Positions 281-30,400 of a stretch of 64,000 bases of DNA are shown piece by piece. Numbering within the stretch: position 1 is the first letter of the stretch; every line of letters starts with the position of its first letter. This DNA comes from a virus (lineage: Duplodnaviria; Caudoviricetes). The DNA lies in the IMG/VR virus record IMGVR_UViG_2823592041_000002, positions 72,880 through 136,879 of that record. One strand, 5' to 3'. Both the position numbers and the translations under genes were made by a program. Under the pieces are notes generated by a model, which did not search any database, had not been told where the DNA came from, and worked only from the letters and a program-made list of their open reading frames with translations.

Positions 281-931
281 ATGAAACTGATAAAAGAGTT
301 GATAGAAGAAGAAAACCTTCAATTCATTACCGAAGAAAAAGACGGTGAGAAAAGATATTACATTGAAGGTGTTTTTATGCAAGCAGATGTTAAAAACAAA
401 AATGGTCGAGTTTATGGTTCGAACATGCTTGCTGAAAAGGTTGAAGAGTATTCCAAAAACTTCATAGAAAAAAATAGAGCATATGGAGAACTCGGTCATC
501 CATCAAACCCTTCTATTAATCTAGAGAGAGTTTCACATAGGATTATTTCATTAAGGAGAGATGGTTCAAACTTTGTAGGTAAGGCTCAAGTATCAAGTAC
601 CCCTTATGGTAACATCGTCAAAGGTCTTCTTGAAGACGGTGGAAAACTTGGTGTCTCATCTAGAGGTCTAGGATCATTAATGAAGGAAGATGGGATATTG
701 AAAGTCCAGAGTGACTTTTTAATCGTCACCCCTGCTGATATCGTAGCAGACCCATCTGCACCTGATGCTTTCGTTGAAGGTATTATGGAAGGTCGAGAAT
801 GGGTGTGGGATAACGGTATCATTCGTGAGAAAACTGTAGAAGATTATAAACAAGTTGTCGAGAAGACTTCATCAAAAGATTTGAAGATGGTGAAGTTGAA
901 ATTGTTTGAAGATTTTCTTTCGAAACTGTAA
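281..931 (+). CDS. gp21: Prohead core protease (T4 gp21-like)
   Basis: IEGVFMQA..KNKNGRVY, GELGHP (catalytic His), GVSSRGLGSL (catalytic Ser), DIVADPSAPDAFV; synteny with gp22/gp23. Confidence 0.96.
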   Translation: MKLIKELIEEENLQFITEEKDGEKRYYIEGVFMQADVKNKNGRVYGSNMLAEKVEEYSKNFIEKNRAYGELGHPSNPSINLERVSHRIISLRRDGSNFVGKAQVSSTPYGNIVKGLLEDGGKLGVSSRGLGSLMKEDGILKVQSDFLIVTPADIVADPSAPDAFVEGIMEGREWVWDNGIIREKTVEDYKQVVEKTSSKDLKMVKLKLFEDFLSKL

Positions 932-942
932 ATATTAATTAT

Positions 943-950
943 TATAAATA
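943..950 (+). promoter_or_regulatory. T4-type late promoter (TATAAATA) for gp22
   Basis: Exact TATAAATA in the intergenic gap; gp55 is encoded in the window. Confidence 0.8.
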
Positions 951-987
951 AGATATAATGAATGGAATACATTTAGGAGTATTAAAA

Positions 988-2109
988 ATGTCAGAAAAAA
1001 GTGAAATTTTAAATGAAGAAGAAAATATTGAAATTTCGGAAGAAACTACTGAAGAAACTGAAACTGCCGAGACTACAGAAACTGAAACTGAAACTGAAAC
1101 TGTAGAAGAAGTTACTGAAGTTGCTGAAGTTGAAATTTCCGAATTAGAAGAAGAAACTACTGAAACAGAAGTTGAAGAAACTGGTGCTGTATTGGAGAAT
1201 CTTCTAGAAACTTTACCAACTTCAAAATCAGGTATGGTTCAAACTATTAATTCCATGTTAGCAGAAATGACAAAAGATGAGTTACAATTTAAAGTAAAAC
1301 ATTTGGTTGAAGTTTTAACTGCTACTGAAAAAGAAATTCTTGAAAGAGAAGGTGGATTGAACTTAACTGATATTGAATTATCTGACGATGTAAATCAACT
1401 TTTCGAAGGTGAAGAGTTTGATGTAAACTTTCGAAGAAAAGCAACTTTGTTATTCGAAACTGCTGTTGCTAAAAGAGTTGAAGAAGTTCAAGGTAATATC
1501 GAAGAAAACTTCAAACAAGATATGGAAGAACAAGTGCTTGACTATAAAGAGAAGTTATCAGAAGCCGTTGATAAACTTTTGAATGCTTCTATTGAAGATT
1601 GGCAAGATGATAATAAACTTGCTATTCATTCAGGGTTGAAATCGGAAATTACCGAAGAGTTTATGAGTGGTCTGAAAACTCTTTTCAAGGAAAATTATAT
1701 TGATATTCCTGAAGATAAAGAGAATGAGTATGTGAATCTAAAAGAGATTCATGACAACACATCAATCAAGTTGAATGACGAAATTGAAAAAAATATCGAA
1801 CTGAAGTCAACTATCCATGAACAGAAAAGAGAAATTTTGTTCTGGGAAAACACTCAAGATTTAACGACAGTTGAACGAGAGAAACTGCAAAAACTTGCAG
1901 AAAAAATTGAATTTGATAATGATGAGGAATATGTTGAAGGGTTGGAGACAATCCGAAAATGTTATTTTTCAGAAAAGGAAGAATCAACTACTGAAGAAAA
2001 TACTGAAATTGAAGAAGTTGAAACTCTTCAAGTAGTAGCTGAAACTACTGAAAAACCTAAAACTAAAATTGAAAGATACGCCCAAGACCTTGGGAAGTAT
2101 TGGAAATAA
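988..2109 (+). CDS. gp22: Prohead core scaffold protein (T4 gp22-like)
   Basis: Very acidic coiled-coil between gp21 and gp23; FETAV, W..DNKLAI..GLKSEITEEFM.GLK.LF.ENYIDIPE; start moved to ATG 988 after AGGAG. Confidence 0.9.
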   Translation: MSEKSEILNEEENIEISEETTEETETAETTETETETETVEEVTEVAEVEISELEEETTETEVEETGAVLENLLETLPTSKSGMVQTINSMLAEMTKDELQFKVKHLVEVLTATEKEILEREGGLNLTDIELSDDVNQLFEGEEFDVNFRRKATLLFETAVAKRVEEVQGNIEENFKQDMEEQVLDYKEKLSEAVDKLLNASIEDWQDDNKLAIHSGLKSEITEEFMSGLKTLFKENYIDIPEDKENEYVNLKEIHDNTSIKLNDEIEKNIELKSTIHEQKREILFWENTQDLTTVEREKLQKLAEKIEFDNDEEYVEGLETIRKCYFSEKEESTTEENTEIEEVETLQVVAETTEKPKTKIERYAQDLGKYWK

Positions 2110-2129
2110 TAATTGTAAAAAACAAATAA

Positions 2130-2137
2130 TATAAATA
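2130..2137 (+). promoter_or_regulatory. T4-type late promoter for gp23
   Basis: Exact TATAAATA upstream of the major capsid gene. Confidence 0.85.
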
Positions 2138-2208
2138 TATTTGTGATGAACCAAGTGTAACTAAGATGTTAGATTCTGACAATCTATACGGAAAAGGAGA
2201 AAATTAAA

Positions 2209-3480
2209 ATGAGTTACGAAGATTTGTTGAAAAAGTGGGAACCTGTTCTTGAGCACCCTGAGTTTGCTGAGATTAAGGATCCTTACAAAAAGAAAGTCAC
2301 AGCAATCCTTTTAGAGAATCAGGATCGTGATATGGAAGAAGCTAAGAATGGCGGATATGGTTCTCTTAATGAAACTACTAACGTTATCGGAAACGGTAAT
2401 GCTAATGTAAAAACTTTTGACCCAGTTCTTATCTCTATGATTAGACGAAGTATGCCAAATTTGATTGCTTTTGATGTAATGGGTGTTCAACCTATGAACG
2501 GACCTTCTGGGCTTATCTTCGCAATGAAGAGTCATTACGATAGTCAAACTGGAACTGAAGCTCTTCATGATGAAGCTAATACTGGTTTTTCTGGTGACGC
2601 AACTGCTAATGGTGCTGCTAGTCCTTTTGATGCTGCGTATGCTGCTGGTTCTGGTATTGCAACTGCTGATGCTGAACTTTTAGGTTCTGGTGCTGCTGGT
2701 GCTGGTGATTTTGCTGAAATGGCAATGTCCATTGATAAGGTATCTGTAACTGCAAAGTCCAGAGCTCTTAAAGCAGAATACACTATGGAATTAGCACAAG
2801 ACTTGAAAGCAATTCATAATCTTGATGCTGAATCTGAGTTAGCAAACATTCTTTCTTCTGAAATTATGGCTGAAATTAACCGTGAAATGATTAGAAAGAT
2901 TAATTTGACTGCTTCCGCTGGTGCTGCTGACACTCAAACACCTGGAACTTTTGATTTAGACTTAGATTCCAGTGGTCGATGGTCTGTTGAAAAGTTCAAA
3001 GGGCTTTTATTCCAAATCGAACGAGATGCTAATGCTATTGCTAAGGCTACTCGACGAGGTAAGGGTAATGTTCTTATCTGTTCCTCTGATGTTGCTTCTG
3101 CTCTTCAGATGGCAGGTGTTCTAGATTATAATCCTGCACTCCAGAATAGTTTACAAGTTGATGATACTGGTAGTACTTTCGCAGGTATATTGAATGGTCG
3201 GTATAAAGTTTATATTGACCCTTATGTATCTGGTGTTGAATATTACACTTTAGGGTACAAAGGTTCCAGTGCTTATGATGCTGGATTATTCTACTGTCCA
3301 TATGTTCCACTACAAATGGTTCGAGCAATGGGGGAAAACACTTTCCAACCAAAAATCGGTTTTAAAACTCGATATGGTTTGGTAGCTAACCCATTCGCAA
3401 CCTCTGCTGGAGATGGTGACGTTGCTAGTAACAAAAAGAACAGTTACTACAGAGCTGTTAAAGTAGATAACTTATTATAA
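2209..3480 (+). CDS. gp23: Major capsid protein (T4 gp23-like)
   Basis: KKWEPVLEH, RRSMPNLIAFD, GVQPMNGPSGLIFAM, KSRALKAEYTMELAQDLKAIH, YCPYVPLQM, FQPKIGFKTRYG. Confidence 0.99.
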   Translation: MSYEDLLKKWEPVLEHPEFAEIKDPYKKKVTAILLENQDRDMEEAKNGGYGSLNETTNVIGNGNANVKTFDPVLISMIRRSMPNLIAFDVMGVQPMNGPSGLIFAMKSHYDSQTGTEALHDEANTGFSGDATANGAASPFDAAYAAGSGIATADAELLGSGAAGAGDFAEMAMSIDKVSVTAKSRALKAEYTMELAQDLKAIHNLDAESELANILSSEIMAEINREMIRKINLTASAGAADTQTPGTFDLDLDSSGRWSVEKFKGLLFQIERDANAIAKATRRGKGNVLICSSDVASALQMAGVLDYNPALQNSLQVDDTGSTFAGILNGRYKVYIDPYVSGVEYYTLGYKGSSAYDAGLFYCPYVPLQMVRAMGENTFQPKIGFKTRYGLVANPFATSAGDGDVASNKKNSYYRAVKVDNLL

Positions 3481-13704: not shown

Positions 13705-16176
13705 ATGCGTTTCTATACGTCAGTTAATTCCGTCAATGACAAAATGTGTGTCAGAGGTTTTGTCAACGGTAAAAGATTTATTGATAGAGTTCCCTATCAA
13801 CCTGCTATGTTTATGAAATGTAATGCAAGTGAGGTTACAAAATATAAAGATATCTATGGCAACCCCCTAAAGAAGATTGTCTTCCAAGGTCTTCAAGAAG
13901 CTAAAGATAAGTGTTTCCAAAAGACTACAAGAGAAGATTATCATGGGATGGCAAACTTTGAGTATTCTTATATTTCTGACAATTACCCAGAAGATATAGA
14001 ATTTGATCCTAAATTGGTGAAGAAACTATATCTCGATATTGAGGTTTCTTCTGAGAATGGTTTTCCAAAACCAGAAGAAGCTTCAGAACCTGTAACTGCA
14101 ATTACGGTTTCTGATGGTAAGAGGTACTTTGTTTTTGGGTTGAAAGATTACAAACCACACAAAGAGAATATCCATTATAAGAAGTGTAGTTCAGAACATG
14201 AATTGTTATATTACTTTGTCAAGTTTTGGGTTGGTTTTGAGGTTGATATTATTACAGGCTGGAACACTAAGTATTTCGATATCCCATATCTTGTCAACCG
14301 CATCAAAGCACTTTTAGGTGATAGGGAATCTAAAAAACTGTCACCATTCGGTGTTATTCGTGAACGAACTGTCCAGAAACATGCAAACCTTTCAGTGCAA
14401 ACTTACAATCTTTTAGGTGTTTCCGATTTAGATTATCTTGAAATGTACAGAAAGTTTACATTCTCTAATCAAGAAAGTTACAGACTTGATCATATTGCTT
14501 CTGTTGAGCTTGGTGAAAAGAAACTGGACTACTCTGAGTATGAAGGACTTTTTGACCTTTATGAAAAAGACTATCAGAAGTTTGTTGAATATAATGTGAA
14601 AGACGTTGAGTTGATTGTTCGACTTGAAGAGAAACTTGGTTTCATCGAAATGGTGCAGACGATGGCTTATGATGCAAAAGTGAATTATGATGACACTTTT
14701 TATCAAGTTCGTATGTGGGATGTTATTATCTTCAATGCACTAAGAAAAAAGAATGTTGTAGTTCCACCAAAAATCAAACAACCAAGTCAACCATTTGAAG
14801 GCGCTTATGTTAAAGAACCTAAGTCTGGATACTATGAATGGGTGACTTCTTTTGACTTGAACTCTCTATATCCCCACATCATTATGCAATGGAACAGCTC
14901 ACCCGAAACTCTTAAAAGAAAAAATGAACATGTTACTGTGAATGATTTACTCAATCAGGTCTATGAACCAGACATAAATGACAAGGAGTCTATGATGGCT
15001 AATGGTTCTGTTTATGACAGGACTAAGACTGGTATTCTACCTGCCCTGATGTCTAAAATGTATCAGGATAGGAAAATATACAAGAAAGAGATGATCAAGT
15101 TACAGAAGGAGTATGAGAGAACCAAAGACCATAAAACTAAGATGTTGGCAGACAAGTATTACAATCTTCAGTTAGTTAAGAAGATTCAATTGAACTCTGC
15201 TTATGGTGCGATTGGAAACAGGTTCTTTAGATTCTTTGATGTTCGTATTGCAGAAGGTATCACAACATCTGGACAGTTAGTTATTCGATGGGCTGAGAAA
15301 AAGATGAACGAGTTTCTAAGTAAGAGATTTGGTAACGATGAAAAAGATTTCGTAATTGCTTCTGACACAGATTCTCTTTATCTTGATCTTTCGGATTATG
15401 TCAAAGAGATGGACACCAAAGACAAAACAGAAATCACCGACAAACTGAATTTGATTTCACAGAACGAGATTCAGCCGTACATGGAACAGTTCTATGATGA
15501 ATTGAAAGATTATCTGAATTGTCCAAAACAAAAGATGGTTATGGAACGAGAAGTGATTGCTGATCAGGGTATATGGATTGGTAAGAAACACTACGTTCTC
15601 AATGTTCTTGATTCAGAGGGTGTTCGTTATGAAAAACCCAAACTCAAGATGATGGGTATATCTGCGGTGAAGAGTTCCACACCAGCTATCTGTCGTGATA
15701 ATATTAAGAAGTCGATTGATATTTTGATGAATGGTAATCAAGAGGAATTGTTTGATTTTCTTGAAACCGCAAAAGAAAACTTCATGAAAGCTAATCCAGA
15801 GGATGTGATGTTTCCAAGGGGTGTCAATAATCTAAAAAAGTATGCGGATAGGGATACACTTTACACAAAAGGTACTCCAATACATGTTAAAGGTTCCTTG
15901 TTGTTCAATAAATACTTAGTCGAAAAGAACCTTGATAAAAAGTATGAAAAGATAGAAGAAGGTGAAAAGATCAAGTTCTGTTATCTAAAACAACCCAACC
16001 CAATATTCGATACTGTTTTTGCAGTCAAGAATGTCCTACCAAAAGAGTTTGGATTGGAAGAGTTTATCGACTATGAAAAACAATGGGAGAAAGCTTTCCT
16101 TGAATCTGTTGAAGATATTGTTGATGCTAGAGGTTGGAAGACAAAAAAATCTTCAAGTTTGTTTGACTTTTTCTAA
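13705..16176 (+). CDS. gp43: Family B DNA polymerase (gp43)
   Basis: DIEV, GWN...FDIPY, YNVKDV, SFDLNSLYP, KIQLNSAYG, SDTDS, C-terminal clamp-binding SLFDFF. Confidence 0.99.
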   Translation: MRFYTSVNSVNDKMCVRGFVNGKRFIDRVPYQPAMFMKCNASEVTKYKDIYGNPLKKIVFQGLQEAKDKCFQKTTREDYHGMANFEYSYISDNYPEDIEFDPKLVKKLYLDIEVSSENGFPKPEEASEPVTAITVSDGKRYFVFGLKDYKPHKENIHYKKCSSEHELLYYFVKFWVGFEVDIITGWNTKYFDIPYLVNRIKALLGDRESKKLSPFGVIRERTVQKHANLSVQTYNLLGVSDLDYLEMYRKFTFSNQESYRLDHIASVELGEKKLDYSEYEGLFDLYEKDYQKFVEYNVKDVELIVRLEEKLGFIEMVQTMAYDAKVNYDDTFYQVRMWDVIIFNALRKKNVVVPPKIKQPSQPFEGAYVKEPKSGYYEWVTSFDLNSLYPHIIMQWNSSPETLKRKNEHVTVNDLLNQVYEPDINDKESMMANGSVYDRTKTGILPALMSKMYQDRKIYKKEMIKLQKEYERTKDHKTKMLADKYYNLQLVKKIQLNSAYGAIGNRFFRFFDVRIAEGITTSGQLVIRWAEKKMNEFLSKRFGNDEKDFVIASDTDSLYLDLSDYVKEMDTKDKTEITDKLNLISQNEIQPYMEQFYDELKDYLNCPKQKMVMEREVIADQGIWIGKKHYVLNVLDSEGVRYEKPKLKMMGISAVKSSTPAICRDNIKKSIDILMNGNQEELFDFLETAKENFMKANPEDVMFPRGVNNLKKYADRDTLYTKGTPIHVKGSLLFNKYLVEKNLDKKYEKIEEGEKIKFCYLKQPNPIFDTVFAVKNVLPKEFGLEEFIDYEKQWEKAFLESVEDIVDARGWKTKKSSSLFDFF

Positions 16177-21384: not shown

Positions 21385-21417
21385 GAGAGAGTGATCAACT
21401 TGATCACTCTCTCTTTT
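21385..21417 (+). terminator. Rho-independent terminator closing the RHH/ParB-like cassette
   Basis: Perfect 13-bp stem GAGAGAGTGATCA-ACT-TGATCACTCTCTC followed by TTTT. Confidence 0.8.
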
Positions 21418-21532
21418 ACTAGCCTTTTAATTAATAGTGTCATTTCTAATAGGCATAATTCTTGATATTTCACCCTCAAATATAGTATAATAGAATATAG
21501 TGAGAGACTAAATAGTTAGTGAGAGTTTTGAA

Positions 21533-22813
21533 ATGAGTTATTCTATACGAAAATATTTGAAAGAAGATGTCCTTGTTGAAGCAAAAGTAAACAAGAATTT
21601 ACATCTTGAACACCTTGAAGACAATCCACTCAATTTTGGTTATACTGGAATATCTAAAACAATAGATTTCCTAAACGCAACTATTGGTTTATTGTCTGGT
21701 TCTGCAAACAAGAGTGTTGATGTCACTGTCAAATATGATGGTGCTCCTGCAATATTCTGTGGTACTGACCCAGAGGATGGTAAGTTTTTTGTTGGAACCA
21801 AATCAGTATTCTCCAAGAATGCTAAACTTGTTAAACGGGAGTCCGATTTAGACAAATATGGGTTCTCTGGACAACTCAAAGACAAACTATCCATTGCTCT
21901 CAAAGAACTCCCTAAATTGGGTATTGAAGGGGTCTTACAGGGTGATATGATGTTCACATCTGATGACATCACAACCAAAAAGATAAATGGTGAACCTTAC
22001 ATCACCTTTCAACCAAATACTATCATGTATGCTGTTCCTAGCAATTCTGATCTTGCTTCTAAAATGTTGAAGTCTAAAATCGGGATCATCTTTCATACTA
22101 CATATTCTGGTGATAAACTGGAAGACATGAAAGCATCTTTTGGTGCTAATGTTTCAAAATTGAACAAAGTCAGCTCAGTTTGGGTTGATGATGCATTTTA
22201 TAAAGATGTAACTGGATCACTTTTCTCTGAAAAAGAAACTTCCGATTTAGAGAAAAAGATTGCTAAACTCCAAAGAGTTGGTAATGCTATTAGTAAGAAG
22301 TCTATGAATAATATTCTTTCCGTTCACGATGAATTGAAAACTTCTGAACTTGGTGCTGGATTGAAAACATATTTCAACTCAAATGTTAGAAGAGGTATTT
22401 TGCCAAAGTCTGGTGTTACTGGAGTGAATAACTTCCTTATTCATTTTGGAAATCATTTTGAAGATAAAGTTATCGCAAAAGTAAAACAAGAAAAGACAAA
22501 GAATCAGAAGAAGGAAAGAAAACAACAACTCCTAAACCTTCTAATCAAGGAAAAAGTTGCACTAGCTAACCTATTAGAATTCATGTTATTGACGATAGAT
22601 TTGAAGAACTCTGTGATAAGAAAATTAGAAACAGGAGTTAATTCTAAAATGGAAACTTTTGTAGTTGATAATAAAGGTATCCGAGTTACAAAACCAGAAG
22701 GATTTGTTGCTATTGATAAACTATCTGGTGGTGCTGTAAAGTTCGTTGACAGACTTGAATTCTCCCAATTAAATTTCACAGTTGACAAGAACTGGTCTAA
22801 AGTCTCATCGTAG
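21533..22813 (+). CDS. Putative ATP-dependent RNA ligase-like covalent nucleotidyltransferase (Rnl2-type motifs) with capsid-targeting-like N-terminus
   Basis: Motif I VKYDGA, III LQGDMMF, IV PEGFVA, V AVKFV; N-terminus MSYSIRKYLKE. Confidence 0.6.
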   Translation: MSYSIRKYLKEDVLVEAKVNKNLHLEHLEDNPLNFGYTGISKTIDFLNATIGLLSGSANKSVDVTVKYDGAPAIFCGTDPEDGKFFVGTKSVFSKNAKLVKRESDLDKYGFSGQLKDKLSIALKELPKLGIEGVLQGDMMFTSDDITTKKINGEPYITFQPNTIMYAVPSNSDLASKMLKSKIGIIFHTTYSGDKLEDMKASFGANVSKLNKVSSVWVDDAFYKDVTGSLFSEKETSDLEKKIAKLQRVGNAISKKSMNNILSVHDELKTSELGAGLKTYFNSNVRRGILPKSGVTGVNNFLIHFGNHFEDKVIAKVKQEKTKNQKKERKQQLLNLLIKEKVALANLLEFMLLTIDLKNSVIRKLETGVNSKMETFVVDNKGIRVTKPEGFVAIDKLSGGAVKFVDRLEFSQLNFTVDKNWSKVSS

Positions 22814-22821
22814 TATAAATA
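22814..22821 (+). promoter_or_regulatory. T4-type late promoter
   Basis: Exact TATAAATA. Confidence 0.75.
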
Positions 22822-22845
22822 GTTATAAATTATTAGGAGAGTAAT

Positions 22846-23352
22846 ATGACAGTTTATAGACCTTTCACTGAGAAACTTGGAGCATCAGACCCAACAACTT
22901 TTATCGGTAATGCCGGAGAACTTTTTTACAATGCGGATACTCAACAAGTTTTCATTTCCGATGGTTCAACTCCTGGAGGTATTCCAATTGCTGGTGGTGG
23001 TGGGGTTCAATCTTCAATAACAGATGGAACAAGCACTTTATCTTTTGATAGTAATAATAGAATTTCAATAGATACTCACATTATACCAGACACTAATGCT
23101 GCTTATGATTTAGGTAACGCTGAATACAAAATAAGACACTTATTTTTAAGTGACAATAGTTTAACTATGGGTGATACAACTCTAAGTGAACAGAATATTA
23201 TCAGAAGTGTCGAAATTGGTGATGAACCAGCACCAAACGTTCCTAATGAGCCTGGGAGAAAAGGTGATATTAGGATTAGTCCTGAACACCTATATATCTG
23301 TGTTGAAGAGAATCAATGGAGAAGAGTTTCTTTAGATCCTGCTTGGGTGTAA
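22846..23352 (+). CDS. Short fibre/structural protein with Mtd-N-like N-terminus
   Basis: GELFY..DT....ISDG.TPGG, IIPDTNAAYDLG, G..GDIR....LYICV..NQWRRV.L, motifs common in phage fibres. Confidence 0.6.
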   Translation: MTVYRPFTEKLGASDPTTFIGNAGELFYNADTQQVFISDGSTPGGIPIAGGGGVQSSITDGTSTLSFDSNNRISIDTHIIPDTNAAYDLGNAEYKIRHLFLSDNSLTMGDTTLSEQNIIRSVEIGDEPAPNVPNEPGRKGDIRISPEHLYICVEENQWRRVSLDPAWV

Positions 23353-23355
23353 TAT

Positions 23356-24069
23356 ATGAAAAAGATTGTAATGATATTTGGTAGATTTAATCCACCTACA
23401 ACAGGACATGAGTTGTTAGTGGACAAGAGTTTTCGTCACGCAAAGAAACTTGGAGCCGAATACGCAATTTTTACATCTAAATCAAATGACCCAAAAAAGA
23501 ACCCACTATCCATAGATGATAAAATCAAGTTTATGAAATTATCATTCCCAAAACATAAAAACCGTATACACCATCCAGATGTTATAGGAATTAGAACACC
23601 TGCTGAAGTATTAGAATGGTTGAGTGAAAATGGATATGAAGAACTTCATTTTGTTGTTGGTTCTGATAGAGTAAAATCCTTTGAAGGGATGATAAACTCC
23701 ATGCAAAAGAAAGGGTACACAAAGTTTAAGAAAGTTGTTGTTGTATCTGCTGGAGAAAGAGATCCAGATGCTGATGATGTTTCTGGAATGAGTGCATCTA
23801 AGATGAGGGGGTTTGTTAAGAAAGGTGATTTTGATTCTTTCGCAAAAGGCACTCCCATGAATTCTAAAGATGCTAGGAAAATGTTTGATAAACTAAAAGA
23901 GGGGATGAAACTCAGTGAAAGTTATATAACTGAAGTTTTAAAACCATCTGACCCTCTTGAGAAATGGATAAAGGATTTTCTAAAATCTGATGATCCAAGA
24001 TTTGATGATAAATCAAAAGAGAAAATAATACAAATGGCTACAGCTGCATATTATGCTGCACAGGAATAA
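23356..24069 (+). CDS. HxGH-superfamily nucleotidyltransferase (cytidylyltransferase/NMNAT/PPAT-like) plus small C-terminal domain
   Basis: FGRFNPPTTGH, KNPL, VVGSDR, SAG.RDPD, MSASKMR; tail domain after LSE/ITE. Confidence 0.85.
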   Translation: MKKIVMIFGRFNPPTTGHELLVDKSFRHAKKLGAEYAIFTSKSNDPKKNPLSIDDKIKFMKLSFPKHKNRIHHPDVIGIRTPAEVLEWLSENGYEELHFVVGSDRVKSFEGMINSMQKKGYTKFKKVVVVSAGERDPDADDVSGMSASKMRGFVKKGDFDSFAKGTPMNSKDARKMFDKLKEGMKLSESYITEVLKPSDPLEKWIKDFLKSDDPRFDDKSKEKIIQMATAAYYAAQE

Positions 24070-24079
24070 GGAGAATAAG

Positions 24080-25672
24080 ATGCCAGATATAAAAGATATG
24101 GAAGGCCCTGTAAGATTTAAGAAGGGTGTTGAATTATATTTTGACCCTAAAAAAGATATGTTTTATGACCCAAAGAAGAAAAAGTATGTTTCCGAAAAGG
24201 ATATCTTAAAACTTGAAGATGTTGATTTCGATGAATTGGAAACAATAGAAGAAGGTGTATATGACCCTTCAATCTTCAAAGCTATATTTATGGCTGGAGG
24301 GCCTGGCAGCGGTAAATCTTATGTATCTAATAAAGTGACAGCTGGACTTGGAATGAAGGTTGTAAATAGTGACGACATTTTTGAGATTTTCTTGAAGAAG
24401 GCTGGAATGACTACAACAGCAAAAGATATTTTTTCTGATAAAGGTCAAGAGATTAGAGGTAATGCTAAGAGTGTCACTTCTAAAAGAATGAAACTTTATT
24501 TGGAAGGTAGATTAGGTTTGCTTATAGATGGTACTGGTAAAGACTACTCAAACATTAAAAAGAAAGCTGATAGACTTAGAGACTTAGGATATGACACTTA
24601 TATGGTTTTCGTCAATACATCTTTGGAAATCGCACAAGAAAGGAATGCTGCGAGGTCTAGAAAATTAGACCCAAAAGAAGTTGAAAAAATGTGGAGAGCT
24701 GTTCAAGAAAATATTGGATTGTTTCAGAAATATTTTGGTGCTAGAAATATGATTATTGTAGATAATAATGCTGCTGATGAGAAATATTTAACAGAAGTTT
24801 ATAAACAAGTTAAAAAATTGATAAAGAAACCTGCACAGAATAGATTAGCTAGAGATTGGATTTCTAAAGCTTTAGATGATAAAGTTAGAAAAGAGAGTGT
24901 TGAACTTGAAGAAGTTGACCTTTTTGAAAAATCTGAAGAATACCAAAAGTTCTTTCAATCTGCTTTGAAAAAGTTTGGTATAGACTCACCTGCTGAATTA
25001 GACGACGAGAAGAAAAAAGAATTCTTTGACTATATTGATAAGAATTGGGAAGGTGAGAACGAAGAGGACGAAGAAGAAACTATTGAAGAACTATCACTTG
25101 AAGAAGCAATCGCAGAAGCAAAAGAGTGGAAAGTTGGAGCTCCTGTATTCATAGTAATAAGTTATCATACTAATGGAAAACACTCCACCACAGTTCTTAG
25201 GACAAAGGAGAAAGCAATGAAGTTTGCAAAAGATGAAGAATATCATGAAGATGATGTTAAAGGAACTGCTGTTCTTGATATGAAAGTTGGAAAGTTTATT
25301 GATAAGAAGACTGGAAAGCACATCAAGGAAGACGTTGAACTTTCCGAAAAGATGCAAAAATATGTAGATGCTTGTGGGAAAGATTTCACAAACTATTCCC
25401 TCAAAGAAGGAAAGAAAGATTATGAAATTTATCATAAAACTTTCACATCCGCAATTGAAGAAGTAGAGAAGTTTGCTGAGAAGAATGGATATGAAATAGA
25501 CTCAGATGAAATGTTCAATAAAGTTGGCACTGGCCCTAAAAAACCTTCTGTCGGTAAAACTAATGAATATCATCTGACACTAATGAAAAATGGTAAAGAA
25601 GATAGAAAGAAATTACATTTTCAAGTTTATGGATTAAAATCCCAGTATGAACTGAACATGTACATCTCATAG
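24080..25672 (+). CDS. Multidomain protein with P-loop kinase domain (AAA_33/zeta-toxin/PNK-like)
   Basis: IFMAGGPGSGKS, NSDD, IDGTG, ERNAARSR lid; flanked by small domains separated by acidic I/L-x-E linkers; start at ATG after AGGAG. Confidence 0.75.
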   Translation: MPDIKDMEGPVRFKKGVELYFDPKKDMFYDPKKKKYVSEKDILKLEDVDFDELETIEEGVYDPSIFKAIFMAGGPGSGKSYVSNKVTAGLGMKVVNSDDIFEIFLKKAGMTTTAKDIFSDKGQEIRGNAKSVTSKRMKLYLEGRLGLLIDGTGKDYSNIKKKADRLRDLGYDTYMVFVNTSLEIAQERNAARSRKLDPKEVEKMWRAVQENIGLFQKYFGARNMIIVDNNAADEKYLTEVYKQVKKLIKKPAQNRLARDWISKALDDKVRKESVELEEVDLFEKSEEYQKFFQSALKKFGIDSPAELDDEKKKEFFDYIDKNWEGENEEDEEETIEELSLEEAIAEAKEWKVGAPVFIVISYHTNGKHSTTVLRTKEKAMKFAKDEEYHEDDVKGTAVLDMKVGKFIDKKTGKHIKEDVELSEKMQKYVDACGKDFTNYSLKEGKKDYEIYHKTFTSAIEEVEKFAEKNGYEIDSDEMFNKVGTGPKKPSVGKTNEYHLTLMKNGKEDRKKLHFQVYGLKSQYELNMYIS

Positions 25673-25680
25673 GAAATAAA

Positions 25681-27123
25681 ATGGATCGAATATCACAATA
25701 TAAAAAATATCTTAATAATGGAAAAGAAGATGTTGTGATAGAAGAGGAAGAAATACTCAAACCTTCTGAAATCAAAATATTAGTTCTTACATCTGCAACG
25801 GATAGTGAAGAACCTACTGTAAATAGATTGGAAAAGGTTTGTAAAAAGAGGAGTATTGAACTTCACAGGATTTCTTCTGATAAAGCTTATGTATCCAAGA
25901 AGAGTGAATCTAAAGAAACCCTGATCATTTATAATTATGATGGTGAGGGTAATTCTATGGAAGTAAACTCCAATGATAATATAGTTTGTATTGCCAGAAG
26001 AACTGTTGTAACAAACAGAAATGCTGGAATATTACATAAGATGTTATCTGATCATGGAGTTTTCTGTATTAACTCCCCAAGTAGTGTAAGAACTGCAAGC
26101 AATAAGTTTAACGCATATATCAACTTTATTAATAATGACATCAAAACACCAAGAACTTGTTTAGTGAGTGATGTGAAATACATTGACGATGCTCTCAAAG
26201 AAGTCGGTGGAAAGTTTCCTGTGATTCTAAAATTTACAGAAGGTCATGGTGGAAAAGGTGTTATGAAACTTGATTCCAGAGACAGTTTAGTTTCCGTTAT
26301 TCAAGCATTAAGAAGTGATGAAGAAAATAAAAAAGAGTTAATCCTACAAGAATATAAAGAAGTCAAAGACGATAGAAGAATTCTTGTATTAAATGGTAAG
26401 GTGATTGCTGCTGCAAAAAGAAAGAAAATGAAAAGAGATTTCAGATCAAATGTTTCTTTGGGTGCGGAAGTAGAACCTTATAAACCTACAGAGGAAGAAA
26501 TAGAGATTGCTGTTAAAACTGCAAAGTCCGTTGATTGTTATTATTGTGGTGTTGATATCATAGAATACAAAGATGAGTATTTTGTTTTAGAAGTTAATCC
26601 ATCGCCTGGCTCTAAGTCAAGTTATTGGGATTTAGATAAAAAGAAAAATATCAACGGAACCGAATTGATTGCAAAACTTGTAGATGGTATAATGGATAAA
26701 GATGACTGGAAACATGAGACAAAAGAAGTCGGAGTTATAGAGGTTGTTGATGTCTTAGAAAAGGGTATTGAGCCAATGACTGCTAAAATGGACACTGGAA
26801 ATAGTGGATATAATGTTATTGGTGTTGATAAATTACAAGTTAAAAATAAGACTGCTGAGTTTTATATAAAAGGGTTCGATAAAAAAATAACAAAAAAAGT
26901 TCTACCTAAAAAATCTTTGATTAAAAATAATGGAAGTAAGACAGAAGAAAGGTATTGTGTAAGTTTTGATATAAAGGTTGGAGAAAAGGTGTATAAAGAT
27001 GTACATTTTTCTCTTTCAGATAGAGATAATATGAATCACACAATATTGATTTCTAGAAAATTTATGATTGATTCTAAAATGAGTGTGAATCCAAAGAAAA
27101 AGTTTGTTTTAGGGGAATTATAA
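25681..27123 (+). CDS. RimK-family ATP-grasp ligase fused to C-terminal retropepsin-like (RimB-like) protease
   Basis: TPRT, FPVILK...G.GGKGV, ILQEY, FRSNVSLG, GVDII, LEVN.SPG; then AKMDTGN, ERY.V, LSDR..M...ILI.R. Confidence 0.85.
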   Translation: MDRISQYKKYLNNGKEDVVIEEEEILKPSEIKILVLTSATDSEEPTVNRLEKVCKKRSIELHRISSDKAYVSKKSESKETLIIYNYDGEGNSMEVNSNDNIVCIARRTVVTNRNAGILHKMLSDHGVFCINSPSSVRTASNKFNAYINFINNDIKTPRTCLVSDVKYIDDALKEVGGKFPVILKFTEGHGGKGVMKLDSRDSLVSVIQALRSDEENKKELILQEYKEVKDDRRILVLNGKVIAAAKRKKMKRDFRSNVSLGAEVEPYKPTEEEIEIAVKTAKSVDCYYCGVDIIEYKDEYFVLEVNPSPGSKSSYWDLDKKKNINGTELIAKLVDGIMDKDDWKHETKEVGVIEVVDVLEKGIEPMTAKMDTGNSGYNVIGVDKLQVKNKTAEFYIKGFDKKITKKVLPKKSLIKNNGSKTEERYCVSFDIKVGEKVYKDVHFSLSDRDNMNHTILISRKFMIDSKMSVNPKKKFVLGEL

Positions 27124-27126
27124 ATA
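27119..27126 (+). promoter_or_regulatory. T4-type late promoter
   Basis: Exact TATAAATA overlapping the upstream stop. Confidence 0.7.
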
Positions 27127-27158: not shown

Positions 27159-27410
27159 ATGAGTGGATGGTCAAATGAAGACGGCGCAAAAAAACCTAGT
27201 TACTTAACAGATGATGAGAAAGCAAGATGCTATTGTGATGATAGAGGTTGGGTTTTAGTCCATCTAGATGGTACTGAAGAAGTGTTGGTTTCTGCTAACA
27301 GTTTGAATAATACAGATGAAAAGGGTCATGGATTTGATGAAACATCTGGTGATTCTTTAGATCCAGATAGAGACCCAGCACATGCAGAAAAAGATAATCA
27401 ATTATCATAA
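27159..27410 (+). CDS. Small virion protein; paralogue of the N-terminal domain of the next gene
   Basis: RCYCDDRGWVLVH.DG.EEV.V.AN.LN...E.GHGF shared with the 27447 ORF. Confidence 0.75.
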   Translation: MSGWSNEDGAKKPSYLTDDEKARCYCDDRGWVLVHLDGTEEVLVSANSLNNTDEKGHGFDETSGDSLDPDRDPAHAEKDNQLS

Positions 27411-27446: not shown

Positions 27447-30400
27447 ATGGTTAAGAAGTTATGGTCCAGAGAGGAAGATGGCCAACTCCCAAATTGGCTA
27501 AATGATGAACAAAAAAGTAGATGTTATTGTGATGATAGAGGTTGGGTATTAGTCCACAAAGATGGTAATGAAGAGGTTATCGTAGCAGCTAACACTTTGA
27601 ATGATCCCTCTGAAAGGGGTCATGGATTTGAAGATGGTAAATCTAAAGATGCCGACAGGTCAGGTGCTCATAATGACGTTTCATATTCTCTATCAAGGTC
27701 TAGTCAAATCATTAATGAAGGAGCTTTTGCTACAGTAACCCTAACAACTACAGGTGTTGCTGATAATACTCAAGTTCCGTACACTATAGAAGGTGTTGAA
27801 GCTGAAGATTTACAAGGTGGACAATTATCTGGAAATTTTTTAGTTTCTGGGGGAACTGCCACTTTAAACTTAACAGCTGTCAATGATTCACTAACTGAAG
27901 GACCGCAAACTATAACCGTTAGATTGGGTACTGGTGAATTTATTACGGTTGATATTAACGACACATCAAAAGCACCATCTTACATTCTTTCAGCTCCTGG
28001 TAGTGTTAATGAAGGTGAACCCTTCACAATAACACTTACTACCGAAAACTTTAATGACGGTCCAGTTGCTTATACAATAACAGGAATTGATGACAACGAC
28101 TTAGATATAGCTGGAGGTTCAGCGGGTAGAACGGGAAATATTAATGTATCAACCAATACAGGTTCTATAACATTAAAACTTAAAGAAGATTTATCTTTCA
28201 ATGAAGGTGATGAAACTTTAACTTTAACATTAGATGGTGACTTAGATACAATTGATGTAACCGTAGTTGACTCTTCAACAGCGTCACCAACTTATACATT
28301 ATCAGCGCCTGAAACCATTAATGAAGGTCAAGACCTAACAATAACACTTACTACCGAAGACGTTAATGACGGTCCAGTTCCATATACAATAACAGGAATT
28401 CAAAACGCAGATTTAGATATAGATGGAGGTTCAGCAGGGTTAAGTGGAGAATTCACAGTCTCTGGCAGTCCATCCTCTGATAGTATAACATTAAAACTTA
28501 AAGAAGATTTATCAGACAATGAGAATAACGAAAATTTAGTGCTAACTTTGAATAACGGTGAAGATTCAGTATCAGTTACGATTGTTGACACCTCCAAAGC
28601 ACCAGTCTTCAATTTAACTTCAAACCCATTGGTTAGTGTTAATGAGGGTGCTTCCCTTACAATAAATTTATCAACCGAGAACTTTTCAGGAAATACAGTT
28701 CCATATTTCGTGTCAGGTATAGATGATAATGATTTAGCTTCTGGTTCAGCTTCACTTAATTCGAATTTCAGTCTAGATGGTAATGGGGATGGTAGTTTAA
28801 TATTCAACATTAAAGAAGATGCAACAACAGAGGGTGTTGATAATTTTGTTCTTGAGTTATTGGGCCACGGTCAGCAAATACAAGTAGATATCAATGACAC
28901 TTCTCTAACCCCAGTTTACACTCTATCAACATCACCCCAATTTTCAGTTGATGAGGGTCTTGATTTGGTAGTAACACTACAGACTCAGAATGTCCCTGAT
29001 GGGGATTATACGTATAATATTTCTGGTACAGGTTTTGATTCGGATGATTTGAAACCTACTTCAGCAGGTAGAACAGGGAATTTCACAGTCTCTGGCAGTC
29101 CATCTACAGACTCCATAACATTACAACTGAAAAATGATTACACTTCAAACGAAGGTGATGAAACAATAACTATAGCATTAAATAATGGAGGAGATTCTAT
29201 TCAAGTTGATGTTATAGATACTTCTAACATGGGTTCTACTGATAGAGGTCAATTACCTGTTGTAAACGATAACCTTAAACATTCTTCTGTATCTGATGAT
29301 GCTCAATATGCAGCATTAGGTGCTACTTCTTCAGATGGTTCTGTGGAAATATTTAAATATAATGGTACTGGATGGGATTTATTACAAACACTTCCTAAAC
29401 CAATGGCAGATGCGTTCGATGCTCATGGTATGGCTACAGCATTCAATTCGGATGGTACAGTTTTAGCAGTTGGTGATGGTTGGGCTAATACCTATAGAGG
29501 TAGAGTTTTTATCTATAGGAGAGATGTAAATAGTGGTTTATTTGGACCAGACCCTGAGCATATAATCGATGGTCCTCACAATGCAACCGCATATTTCGGT
29601 CATGGGGTTGCCCTTACTGGTGATGGTAATCAATTATTTGTCGTTTGTACTCAGACAAACAAAATTTACAGATACGATTATAATAATTCAGAGTGGTCAT
29701 CTTCCCCAGATTACACACTAAACACACCAGTCAAATATAGGGATGTTGATGTTTCATCCGATGGTTTAATGCTAGTTGCTGCTGGTGGCCACGGAGCTCC
29801 ATTTGAAGCTAGAGTTTGGACTTGGGATGGATCATCTTTTACAGACCACTCTGTAGTATCTATGCCAACCCAAAATGCTACTCTCGGTGTGGCAATCTCA
29901 AACAAAAAACTCTTAGCCGTTGGCCAAGTTGGAACCGTTAATCAAGAGAATAGAGTTACACTTTTTGATTTGGATGGAACAACATGGACACCTAGACCAT
30001 TAGAATCATGGCAAACCAGTGCAATAGTTGGAAGTTGGACTATCAACAAAGGTTTTAAGATTGCTCTATCTGAACCTAAAAGTGATGGTAAGGTTCTTGT
30101 TGTTGACCATGAGGGTCAAATGCGTGATATTCTTGCAACAACTGATACATACTCAATTTCTGGCCCGAGCAGTATCAATGAAGGTCAAGATTTAACTTTA
30201 ACATTGACTGCACTTGGAATTGATGGTCAAGTTGGATATTCTATCTCAGGAATCACGGATGCTGATTTAGATATAGCAGGTGGTTCAGATTCAGTGGATG
30301 GCAATTTCCAAGTTTCTGATAGTGCAGGTTCTATAACCCTTAAAATAAAAGAAGATGCGAACTCATCTGATGGCTCTTTAGTGTTAACTCTTGACAATGG

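Follow-up and report, generated by a model that had tools for sequence, protein, structure and literature searches.

A locus of a marine T4-like phage that probably encodes enzyme cargo for the phage head

The closest described counterparts of the locus reported here are the internal proteins of phage T4. IPI, IPII, IPIII and Alt, which are processed by gp21 and injected, begin with a leader of about 10 residues that carries an aromatic residue at positions 4 and 7, Ile or Leu at position 8 and Glu at position 10, followed by Ala; in the T4 record, IPII and IPIII both start with MKTYQEFIAE/A (here and below, a slash marks a cut or candidate cut). The first 10 residues are described as sufficient for head loading, with targeting at residues 4 and 7 and processing at residues 8 and 10 (PMC9026906). 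We analysed positions 21533-27123 of a 64,000-nucleotide (nt) window, which comprises positions 72,880 to 136,879 of IMG/VR virus record IMGVR_UViG_2823592041_000002. The record measures 136,879 bp, is about 76% complete according to CheckV and derives from an uncultured marine T4-like phage, whose closest isolated relatives belong to the Kyanoviridae: Methylophilales phage Melnitz and Pelagibacter phage HTVC008M. The stretch encodes a DUF6267 protein, an HxGH nucleotidyltransferase, a P-loop kinase and a RimK-family ATP-grasp ligase. We propose, with a probability of roughly 0.6, that it encodes enzyme cargo of the phage head, made as T4 makes its internal proteins. Loading of internal proteins is known from T4; the enzymatic cargo is new.

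All genes of the stretch lie on the plus strand. The DUF6267 protein (21533-22813, 426 amino acids (aa); PF19782, E 3.7e-102) is followed by the HxGH nucleotidyltransferase, which resembles cytidylyltransferases and nicotinamide mononucleotide (NMN) adenylyltransferases (NMNAT; 23356-24069, 237 aa; PF01467 and phrog_3041), a multi-module protein with the P-loop kinase (24053-25672, 539 aa; AAA_33 and Zeta_toxin) and the ATP-grasp ligase, which is fused to a RimB-like retropepsin (25681-27123; TIGR00768, PF05618). An earlier note on this DNA had described the four enzymes as one cluster, and all four open reading frames (ORFs) are indeed there; a fifth ORF at 22846-23352, fibre-like and located between the first and the second enzyme, had been overlooked. 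As in T4, a gp21-type head maturation protease is encoded (281-931, plus strand; phrog_207, E 1.5e-72), and homologues of gp21, the scaffold and the major capsid protein occupy 281-3480. Proteases of this type are expected to cleave C-terminal to (I/L)-x-E. The likeness to T4 extends to a conserved leader in front of diverse mature parts. In contrast, the T4 internal proteins are small and basic, whereas the putative cargo described here consists of large conserved enzymes, often polyproteins with internal sites; the leader found in the window is, moreover, an off-register variant.

The leader was most evident in the DUF6267 family. When 103 diverse DUF6267 proteins were aligned for core columns and N-termini, most read M-K-x-F-x-Q-F-L-x-E. 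Among 143 cluster representatives with the core motif, 19 had too little upstream sequence; in 117 of the 124 testable ones an [ILVM]xE site was located at most 14 residues before the conserved HxxH core, whereas control windows taken from these proteins had such a site in 439 of 3420 cases (12.8%). The consensus round the last site before the core was M-K-S-F-K-Q-F-L-T-E/A-K, with M at P10, F at P7 (42%), F or Y at P4 (47%), L or I at P3 (90%), E at P1, A or S at P1' (61%) and K at P2' (47%), and the Glu was residue 10 in 36 of 100 proteins. A strict leader pattern applied to 80 IMG/VR loci was present in 64 of 79 DUF6267 ORFs versus 28 of 567 other ORFs, and in none of the 34 UvsX and 46 gp41 proteins of the same loci. 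In fusions with another domain ahead of DUF6267, the linker retains the site. The family leader, with its predicted cut site, matches the T4 capsid-targeting sequence of IPII and IPIII. Literature matches to 'capsid targeting sequence' included no cyanophage or pelagiphage paper by title among those listed, and in the available text of PMC9026906 'cyanophage' occurs only in a reference title.

In the window, the DUF6267 protein starts with MSYSIRKYLKE/DVLVE/AK, which suggests a propeptide of residues 1-11 (ending in LKE11) or 1-16 (ending in LVE16). This N-terminus is identical letter for letter in L004 and L006, two relatives at 96-97% identity. A similar stretch opens the ATP-grasp protein, whose N-terminal 22 residues end in VIEE, and its homologue in the Pelagibacter phage Mosig starts with MQVQPFKNYLEE/A. 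The kinase domain of the window is preceded by TIEE/GVYDP, and the HTVC008M kinase gp129 starts with MIPFILKE/GLYDP. Across the loci, 12 of 19 distinct HxGH N-termini carried a leader, including all 8 that are directly followed by a kinase match (tblastn).

Several of the other ORFs that fit the strict pattern are leader-tagged proteins of different kinds, mostly enzymes, in related loci. CCA-adding enzymes stand beside DUF6267 at L018:4420-6204 and L023:4026-5654, one of them with an HD domain, an NT5C-type nucleotidase at L019:4924-5514, and a protein with a sub-threshold HAD match only at L030:3118-3726. In the head/structural module of cyanophage S-SZBM1, two small ORFs (191 and 192; L085:22312-23126) start with MKSFKSFLSE and MKTFKQYITEA and look like classical small cyanophage internal proteins.

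Homologues of the window HxGH protein have been detected in phage particles. These are ORF140 of S-SZBM1, with 2 peptides (PMC9146016), ORF154 of S-CREM2, with 3 peptides (PMC10665884), and ORF91 of S-SCSM1, in the report of which S-CBWM1 and one more phage are cited as well (PMC9602691). All three carry the leader (starts MRFRQFIIEA, MKNFSSFLTEA and MKSFLQFLKEA), which the window protein does not; they share 39-43% identity with it and lie in the same neighbourhood, downstream of UvsX and gp41. The available portions of these proteome papers make no mention of a targeting leader or of processing. The DUF6267 homologue of S-SZBM1 (ORF141, 39% identity) lacks a leader, and the main text of PMC9146016 does not name it; as a single case, this is consistent with packaging by leader. 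The ATP-grasp homologue of phage YerA41 is annotated as 'structural protein', from a particle proteome that is generous and, in the part available, lists polymerases and helicases too (PMC7354516). In S-SCSM1, ORFs 89-97 (L091:31358-38307), downstream of gp41 and mazG and round the NMNAT-like gene, form a run that the record annotates as virion proteins; a search of this run for a DUF6267 homologue found none.

Thus, the packaging and processing that the earlier note had proposed are backed by the family leader with its cut site, by the gp21-type protease gene and by the leader-bearing HxGH proteins of three virion proteomes. Comparison with relatives lends good support to the predicted capsid packaging; from it we infer that this phage loads, cuts and injects the proteins.

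All four enzyme types are linked to one another by fusions. Among the best 150 DUF6267 representatives, 31 have at least 480 aa; 10 of these carry an HxGH domain, on either side, and 1 carries a kinase, and the phrog_455 profile spans DUF6267 and transferase. Long RimK relatives were HxGH-RimK-protease proteins followed by further modules in 66 of 67 cases. An N-terminal leader with an [ILVMT]xE site was found in 51 of these 66, and a double site, [LMIV]xE-x-[YFWH]-x-x-E, at the HxGH/RimK junction in 56. The window retains this junction motif as KLSESYITE (23908-23934, plus strand; HxGH residues 185-193), and KLSE and YITE, quoted in the earlier note as domain boundaries, fall exactly on it. 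After the motif, the HxGH tail reads VLKPSD, and the ATP-grasp leader has ILKPSE just before its domain. The kinase gene thus looks like an insertion at what was once an HxGH-RimK joint. Its ORF shares 17 nt (24053-24069) with the HxGH ORF, in a different frame, whereas relatives have in-frame HxGH-kinase fusions. The fibre-like ORF (22846-23352, plus strand, 168 aa; Mtd_N 23.1 bits, below the cut-off, and tail-fibre PHROG matches) is a recent insertion at a joint, outside the enzyme set, because it is missing from L004 and L006, where TATAAATA, a late-type promoter motif discussed below, directly precedes the HxGH gene. In four leaderless proteins of 800-1070 aa (P0183, P0197, P0217 and P0234), a second HxGH type, GGFKPPH.GH, stands at the very start and a DUF6267 domain at the end, with a …LTE..TE site in front of that domain.

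These observations suggest the following course of events. DUF6267 would be made with a short N-terminal propeptide that binds the scaffolding core during prohead assembly and is removed after Leu-x-Glu by the gp21-type protease of the phage. The mature protein would remain beside the DNA inside the head, and both would reach the cell together. The HxGH transferase, the adenylate-kinase-like kinase and the RimK/retropepsin protein would belong to the same pool of cargo modules. In related phages these modules follow a single leader in varied order, as polyproteins with protease-type sites at the joints. In the phage studied here the string would have been broken into separate genes, with the kinase and fibre-like genes inserted at the joints.

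The HxGH protein matched PF01467 (CTP_transf_like) with 27.5 bits versus a cut-off of 21 and phrog_3041 ('cytidyltransferase') with E 3.2e-55, and contains the signatures GRFNPPTTGH (HxGH) and MSASKMR (SxxxxR). Its nearest solved proteins are NadR, the best match, and NadD (E 0.03-0.1). It failed the curated NCBIfam NMNAT/NadR models (24.9 bits vs 341, 24.2 vs 112 and 19.2 vs 397). The kinase domain comprises residues 68-287 approximately, or 76-238 in a narrower delimitation (AAA_33/Zeta_toxin, E about 3e-13); its nearest relatives overall are adenylate and nucleoside monophosphate (NMP) kinases, the nearest solved ones being adenylate kinases (E 0.0015), and it matches phrog_505, a polynucleotide kinase (PNK), weakly (E 1.8e-7). 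Domain scans found no phosphatase (HAD) domain in this protein. Like NadR, the fused relatives place a P-loop kinase behind an HxGH domain; unlike NadR, the similarity is weak, the kinase is adenylate-kinase-like, and the window encodes the two in separate overlapping ORFs. The ATP-grasp domain (residues 33-315 approximately) matched RimK in Pfam with E 5e-36 and passed TIGR00768 (168 bits vs a cut-off of 143.4), and the retropepsin domain (351-476) matched Zn_protease PF05618 (34 bits vs 27) and the RimB equivalog below its cut-off (35 bits vs 200). This recalls RimK and RimB, with the difference that the proteins described here are phage-encoded, leader-tagged and usually fused behind an HxGH transferase. 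Among isolates, matches were found in 545 phage records for HxGH, 27 for the ATP-grasp protein and 9 for the kinase.

Small modules, also present elsewhere among the proteins of relatives, make up the C-terminal half of the kinase protein (24917-25672, residues 290-539 approximately). Counterparts of residues 450-538 occur in a 462-aa Melnitz protein and in proteins of L023, L025 and L036, whereas phrog_28651 was matched by residues 295-335; the L004 version is shorter.

DUF6267 itself is abundant, with matches in 465 phage records and 2374 cluster representatives, and in the literature searched, which left most subscription journals outside, we found no paper that names it. Invariant in the 103 aligned sequences are K67-x-D69-G70, D138, Y166, H188-T189, E389-G390, K403 and R407. 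K67, D69 and G70 correspond to the Lys-x-Asp-Gly of motif I of covalent nucleotidyltransferases, and D138, Y166, E389-G390 and K403 follow in the right order as candidate motifs III, IIIa, IV and V, assigned by eye, with a helical insert of about 190 residues between IIIa and IV. Read in this way, the invariant columns fit the motif order of lysine-nucleotidylating enzymes. Sequence and profile searches of the PDB with DUF6267 returned low-complexity matches only, and two Atlas look-ups only unnamed viral clusters. With hhalign, the 103-sequence profile aligned to T4 Rnl1 with E 0.096, to gp30 with E 0.03 (in an irrelevant region) and to Rnl2 with E 0.62; sub-regions, or the profile minus the helical insert, gave P 0.012-0.5, and the whole T4 genome gave no match. 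Three further results fail to support a ligase fold. An alignment to a 119-sequence Rnl1 family alignment reached a probability of 1.5%, although the KxDG lysine aligned with the motif I lysine of Rnl1 in this non-significant match; the Rnl1 hidden Markov model scored at most 8.4 bits among 193 DUF6267 proteins versus 5.2 for shuffled and 6.1 for reversed sequences; and weak Pfam matches went to SWI2_SNF2 in 12 of 103 proteins and to RNA_lig_T4_1 (PF09511) in only 4 of 103 (best E 6.2e-4). Since the comparisons with Rnl1, gp30 and Rnl2 were non-significant, we did not file DUF6267 as a ligase: the homology tests against known ligases failed or were marginal, and of the label 'ligase-like' in the earlier note only the invariant motifs stand.

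In the 137-kb record, at 76% completeness, no match to PF01068, PF01653, PF09414, PF09511, PF04095 or PF01743 was obtained, that is, no known ligase family, NAMPT or CCA-enzyme family was found. Since no known DNA or RNA ligase family turned up, it is remotely possible that DUF6267 is the 'missing' ligase of marine T4-like phages. Our best guess, a weak one, is that its chemistry is adenylyl transfer or ligation, with a nucleotide cofactor made or recycled by the NadR-like nucleotidyltransferase-kinase pair. It is a long shot that DUF6267 represents an unrecognised ligase-like, lysine-nucleotidylating branch that is head-borne together with its own NadR-like HxGH and kinase cofactor factory. 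If so, the fused HxGH transferase and kinase would produce or regenerate the adenylyl donor locally, and nicks could be sealed, or an incoming or host nucleic acid adenylylated, ahead of any phage gene expression.

With respect to transcription, the earlier note had named two late-type promoters, ACTAAATA at 21507 and TATAAATA at 22814. Both are present, and the second leads into the overlooked fifth ORF. ACTAAATA (21507-21514, plus strand) differs from the canonical motif and may be a variant late promoter; it lies 26 nt before the DUF6267 start, a distance kept in L004, L006 and L007 (63% identity). The record contains 7 copies, of which 4 are found no more than 80 nt ahead of an ORF start. 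TATAAATA (22814-22821, plus strand) directly precedes the fibre-like ORF and recurs at 27119-27126, at the end of the unit and before the next gene (27159). It is over-represented in the window, with 25 copies versus 7.9 expected (a number that none of 100 shuffles reached), and 23 of its 38 copies in the whole record lie within 80 nt upstream of an ORF start. Further upstream, a terminator-like hairpin (21385-21413, plus strand; 13-bp stem with 6 GC pairs, then a T run) closes a ParB-like cassette and is followed by a sigma-70-like promoter, TTGATA-18-TATAAT (21462-21491, plus strand), with 11 of 12 consensus positions; such sites are without enrichment in the region overall (49 observed vs 41.3 expected). 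Because terminator and sigma-70-like promoter precede the gene alongside ACTAAATA, early and late expression of DUF6267 are both possible.

The surroundings had been described as structural genes, which is half right: upstream of DUF6267 lie a DNA polymerase (13705-16176), UvsX, gp41, an exonuclease and the ParB-like cassette, and downstream of the ATP-grasp gene lies a 1518-aa repeat protein. The order UvsX-gp41-DUF6267 is kept in 28 of 31 related loci with 5 kb or more of sequence upstream. A duplicated module of about 60 residues, with the motif …CYCDDRGWVLVH.DG.EEV… and a weak match to DUF7440, is shared by an 83-aa ORF (27159-27410), preceded by a TATAAATA of its own (27119), and by the N-terminal part of the 1518-aa protein (27447-27640).

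Several observations weigh against head cargo. Raw [IL]-x-E counts were close to those expected from composition, with 5 vs 3.9 in DUF6267, 5 vs 6.0 in the ATP-grasp protein, 4 vs 1.6 in HxGH (P 0.063) and 12 vs 7.2 in the kinase (P 0.044); the gp21-type protease, as a positive control, had 9 versus 3.6 (P 0.002). All six sites quoted in the earlier note as bounding the enzyme domains exist, but their number is near chance, and we dismissed the raw enrichment as evidence; the signal is in the conserved position. The DUF6267 leader of the window, MSYSIRKYLKE, is one residue off register and fits a loose pattern only. The window kinase has no N-terminal leader, nor has the window HxGH protein, as is the case for 7 of the 19 distinct HxGH N-termini. 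The specificity of the pattern is limited as well, since UvsX of S-SZBM1 (L086:14845-15858) and of HTVC008M (L002:2031-3050) fit it with starts of the form M-x-F-L-x-x-[VI]-[VI]-K-E, probably as false positives. The authors of the proteomes warn, in the text available, that abundant enzymes may co-purify with virions, and the sigma-70-like promoter and the adjoining replication genes would also suit an ordinary early enzyme. Finally, HxGH was found downstream of DUF6267 in 15 of the 22 loci with at least 8 kb of downstream flank, but the kinase in only 9 and the ATP-grasp gene in none; where the downstream flank is 1 kb or longer, the ATP-grasp gene neighbours DUF6267 in 1 of 70 loci. The idea of one system is supported by the fusions among all four enzyme types, but the kinase and ATP-grasp genes are not conserved neighbours, and the fusions may reflect common packaging, not a common pathway.

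Part of this evidence would suit enzymes that stay in the cytoplasm and act in nucleotide or NAD+ metabolism or in ribosome modification, in which case the motif would have another role and the virion detections would be carry-over. The adjoining replication module, the sigma-70-like promoter, the leaderless HxGH and kinase of the window, the co-purification caveat and the generous YerA41 list all point that way. We nevertheless consider it unlikely that the enzymes are unpackaged, because the motif matches the T4 targeting and processing positions, persists in linkers inside fused proteins, does not occur in UvsX and gp41 of the same loci and marks 3 of 3 virion-detected HxGH proteins. Cargo could also serve other ends than those favoured here. 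If the enzymes formed an injected repair kit for tRNA or other RNA of the T4 Pnkp-Rnl1 kind, the kinase would heal 5' ends and DUF6267 would seal them, against anticodon nucleases, as soon as the DNA enters. A kinase and a KxDG protein do occur together in this T4-like phage, T4 rnlA is annotated as acting in tRNA repair with PseT, the KxDG lysine aligns with motif I of Rnl1, the kinase matches phrog_505, and relatives have leader-tagged CCA enzymes and nucleotidase-type proteins beside DUF6267. Such a kit is improbable to us: comparison with Rnl1 and Pnkp gave no significant similarity, the closest relatives of the kinase, which has no phosphatase domain, are adenylate/NMP kinases, neither a phosphatase nor a CCA enzyme nor a known RNA ligase family was found in the record, and the HxGH transferase and the RimK ligase have no place in the pathway. 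Because the genome yielded no CCA enzymes and the Rnl1 and PNK similarities failed, tRNA repair was not adopted.

A supply of NAD+ in the manner of NadR is possible, if doubtful. The HxGH protein would then adenylylate NMN, and the kinase would phosphorylate ribosides or nucleotides, whether to boost metabolism or to counter defences that deplete NAD+; DUF6267 would consume the cofactor or be unrelated. This agrees with the weak similarity of HxGH to NadR, NadD and NMNAT as nearest solved or curated relatives, with the NadR-like order of the fusions and with homologues in phage records that are annotated as NMNAT or bifunctional NadR-like, a role also proposed in the available text of cyanophage papers. 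It agrees poorly with HxGH scores far below the NMNAT model cut-offs, with the failure to find NAMPT in the record and with a kinase in 9 phage records versus 545 for HxGH. Neither RNA healing nor NAD rebuilding, the two functions invoked in the earlier note, is supported, given a kinase nearest to adenylate kinases and a record in which no phosphatase, NAMPT or known ligase was found; a repair or counter-defence role of the enzyme set is something that we can only infer. DNA hypermodification, with kinase and ATP-grasp ligase acting on modified bases, is very improbable: outside marine phages, the ATP-grasp protein has its best isolate match in YerA41, whose thymidine is heavily modified, but this is association only, no other modification genes were seen, and leaders and junction sites would stay unexplained. 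It was dropped as unsupported.

Enzyme cargo of the head, loaded in the T4 manner, is the reading that we prefer. The T4-like phages that infect cyanobacteria, SAR11 and methylophiles rank with the most common viruses of the sea. If a T4-type leader loads enzymes into their heads, the first minutes of infection in the ocean would involve injected catalysts, beyond DNA. This would explain why 'metabolic' enzymes recur in cyanophage virion proteomes, and the leader together with the L-x-E joints would provide a simple sequence rule for predicting injected cargo.

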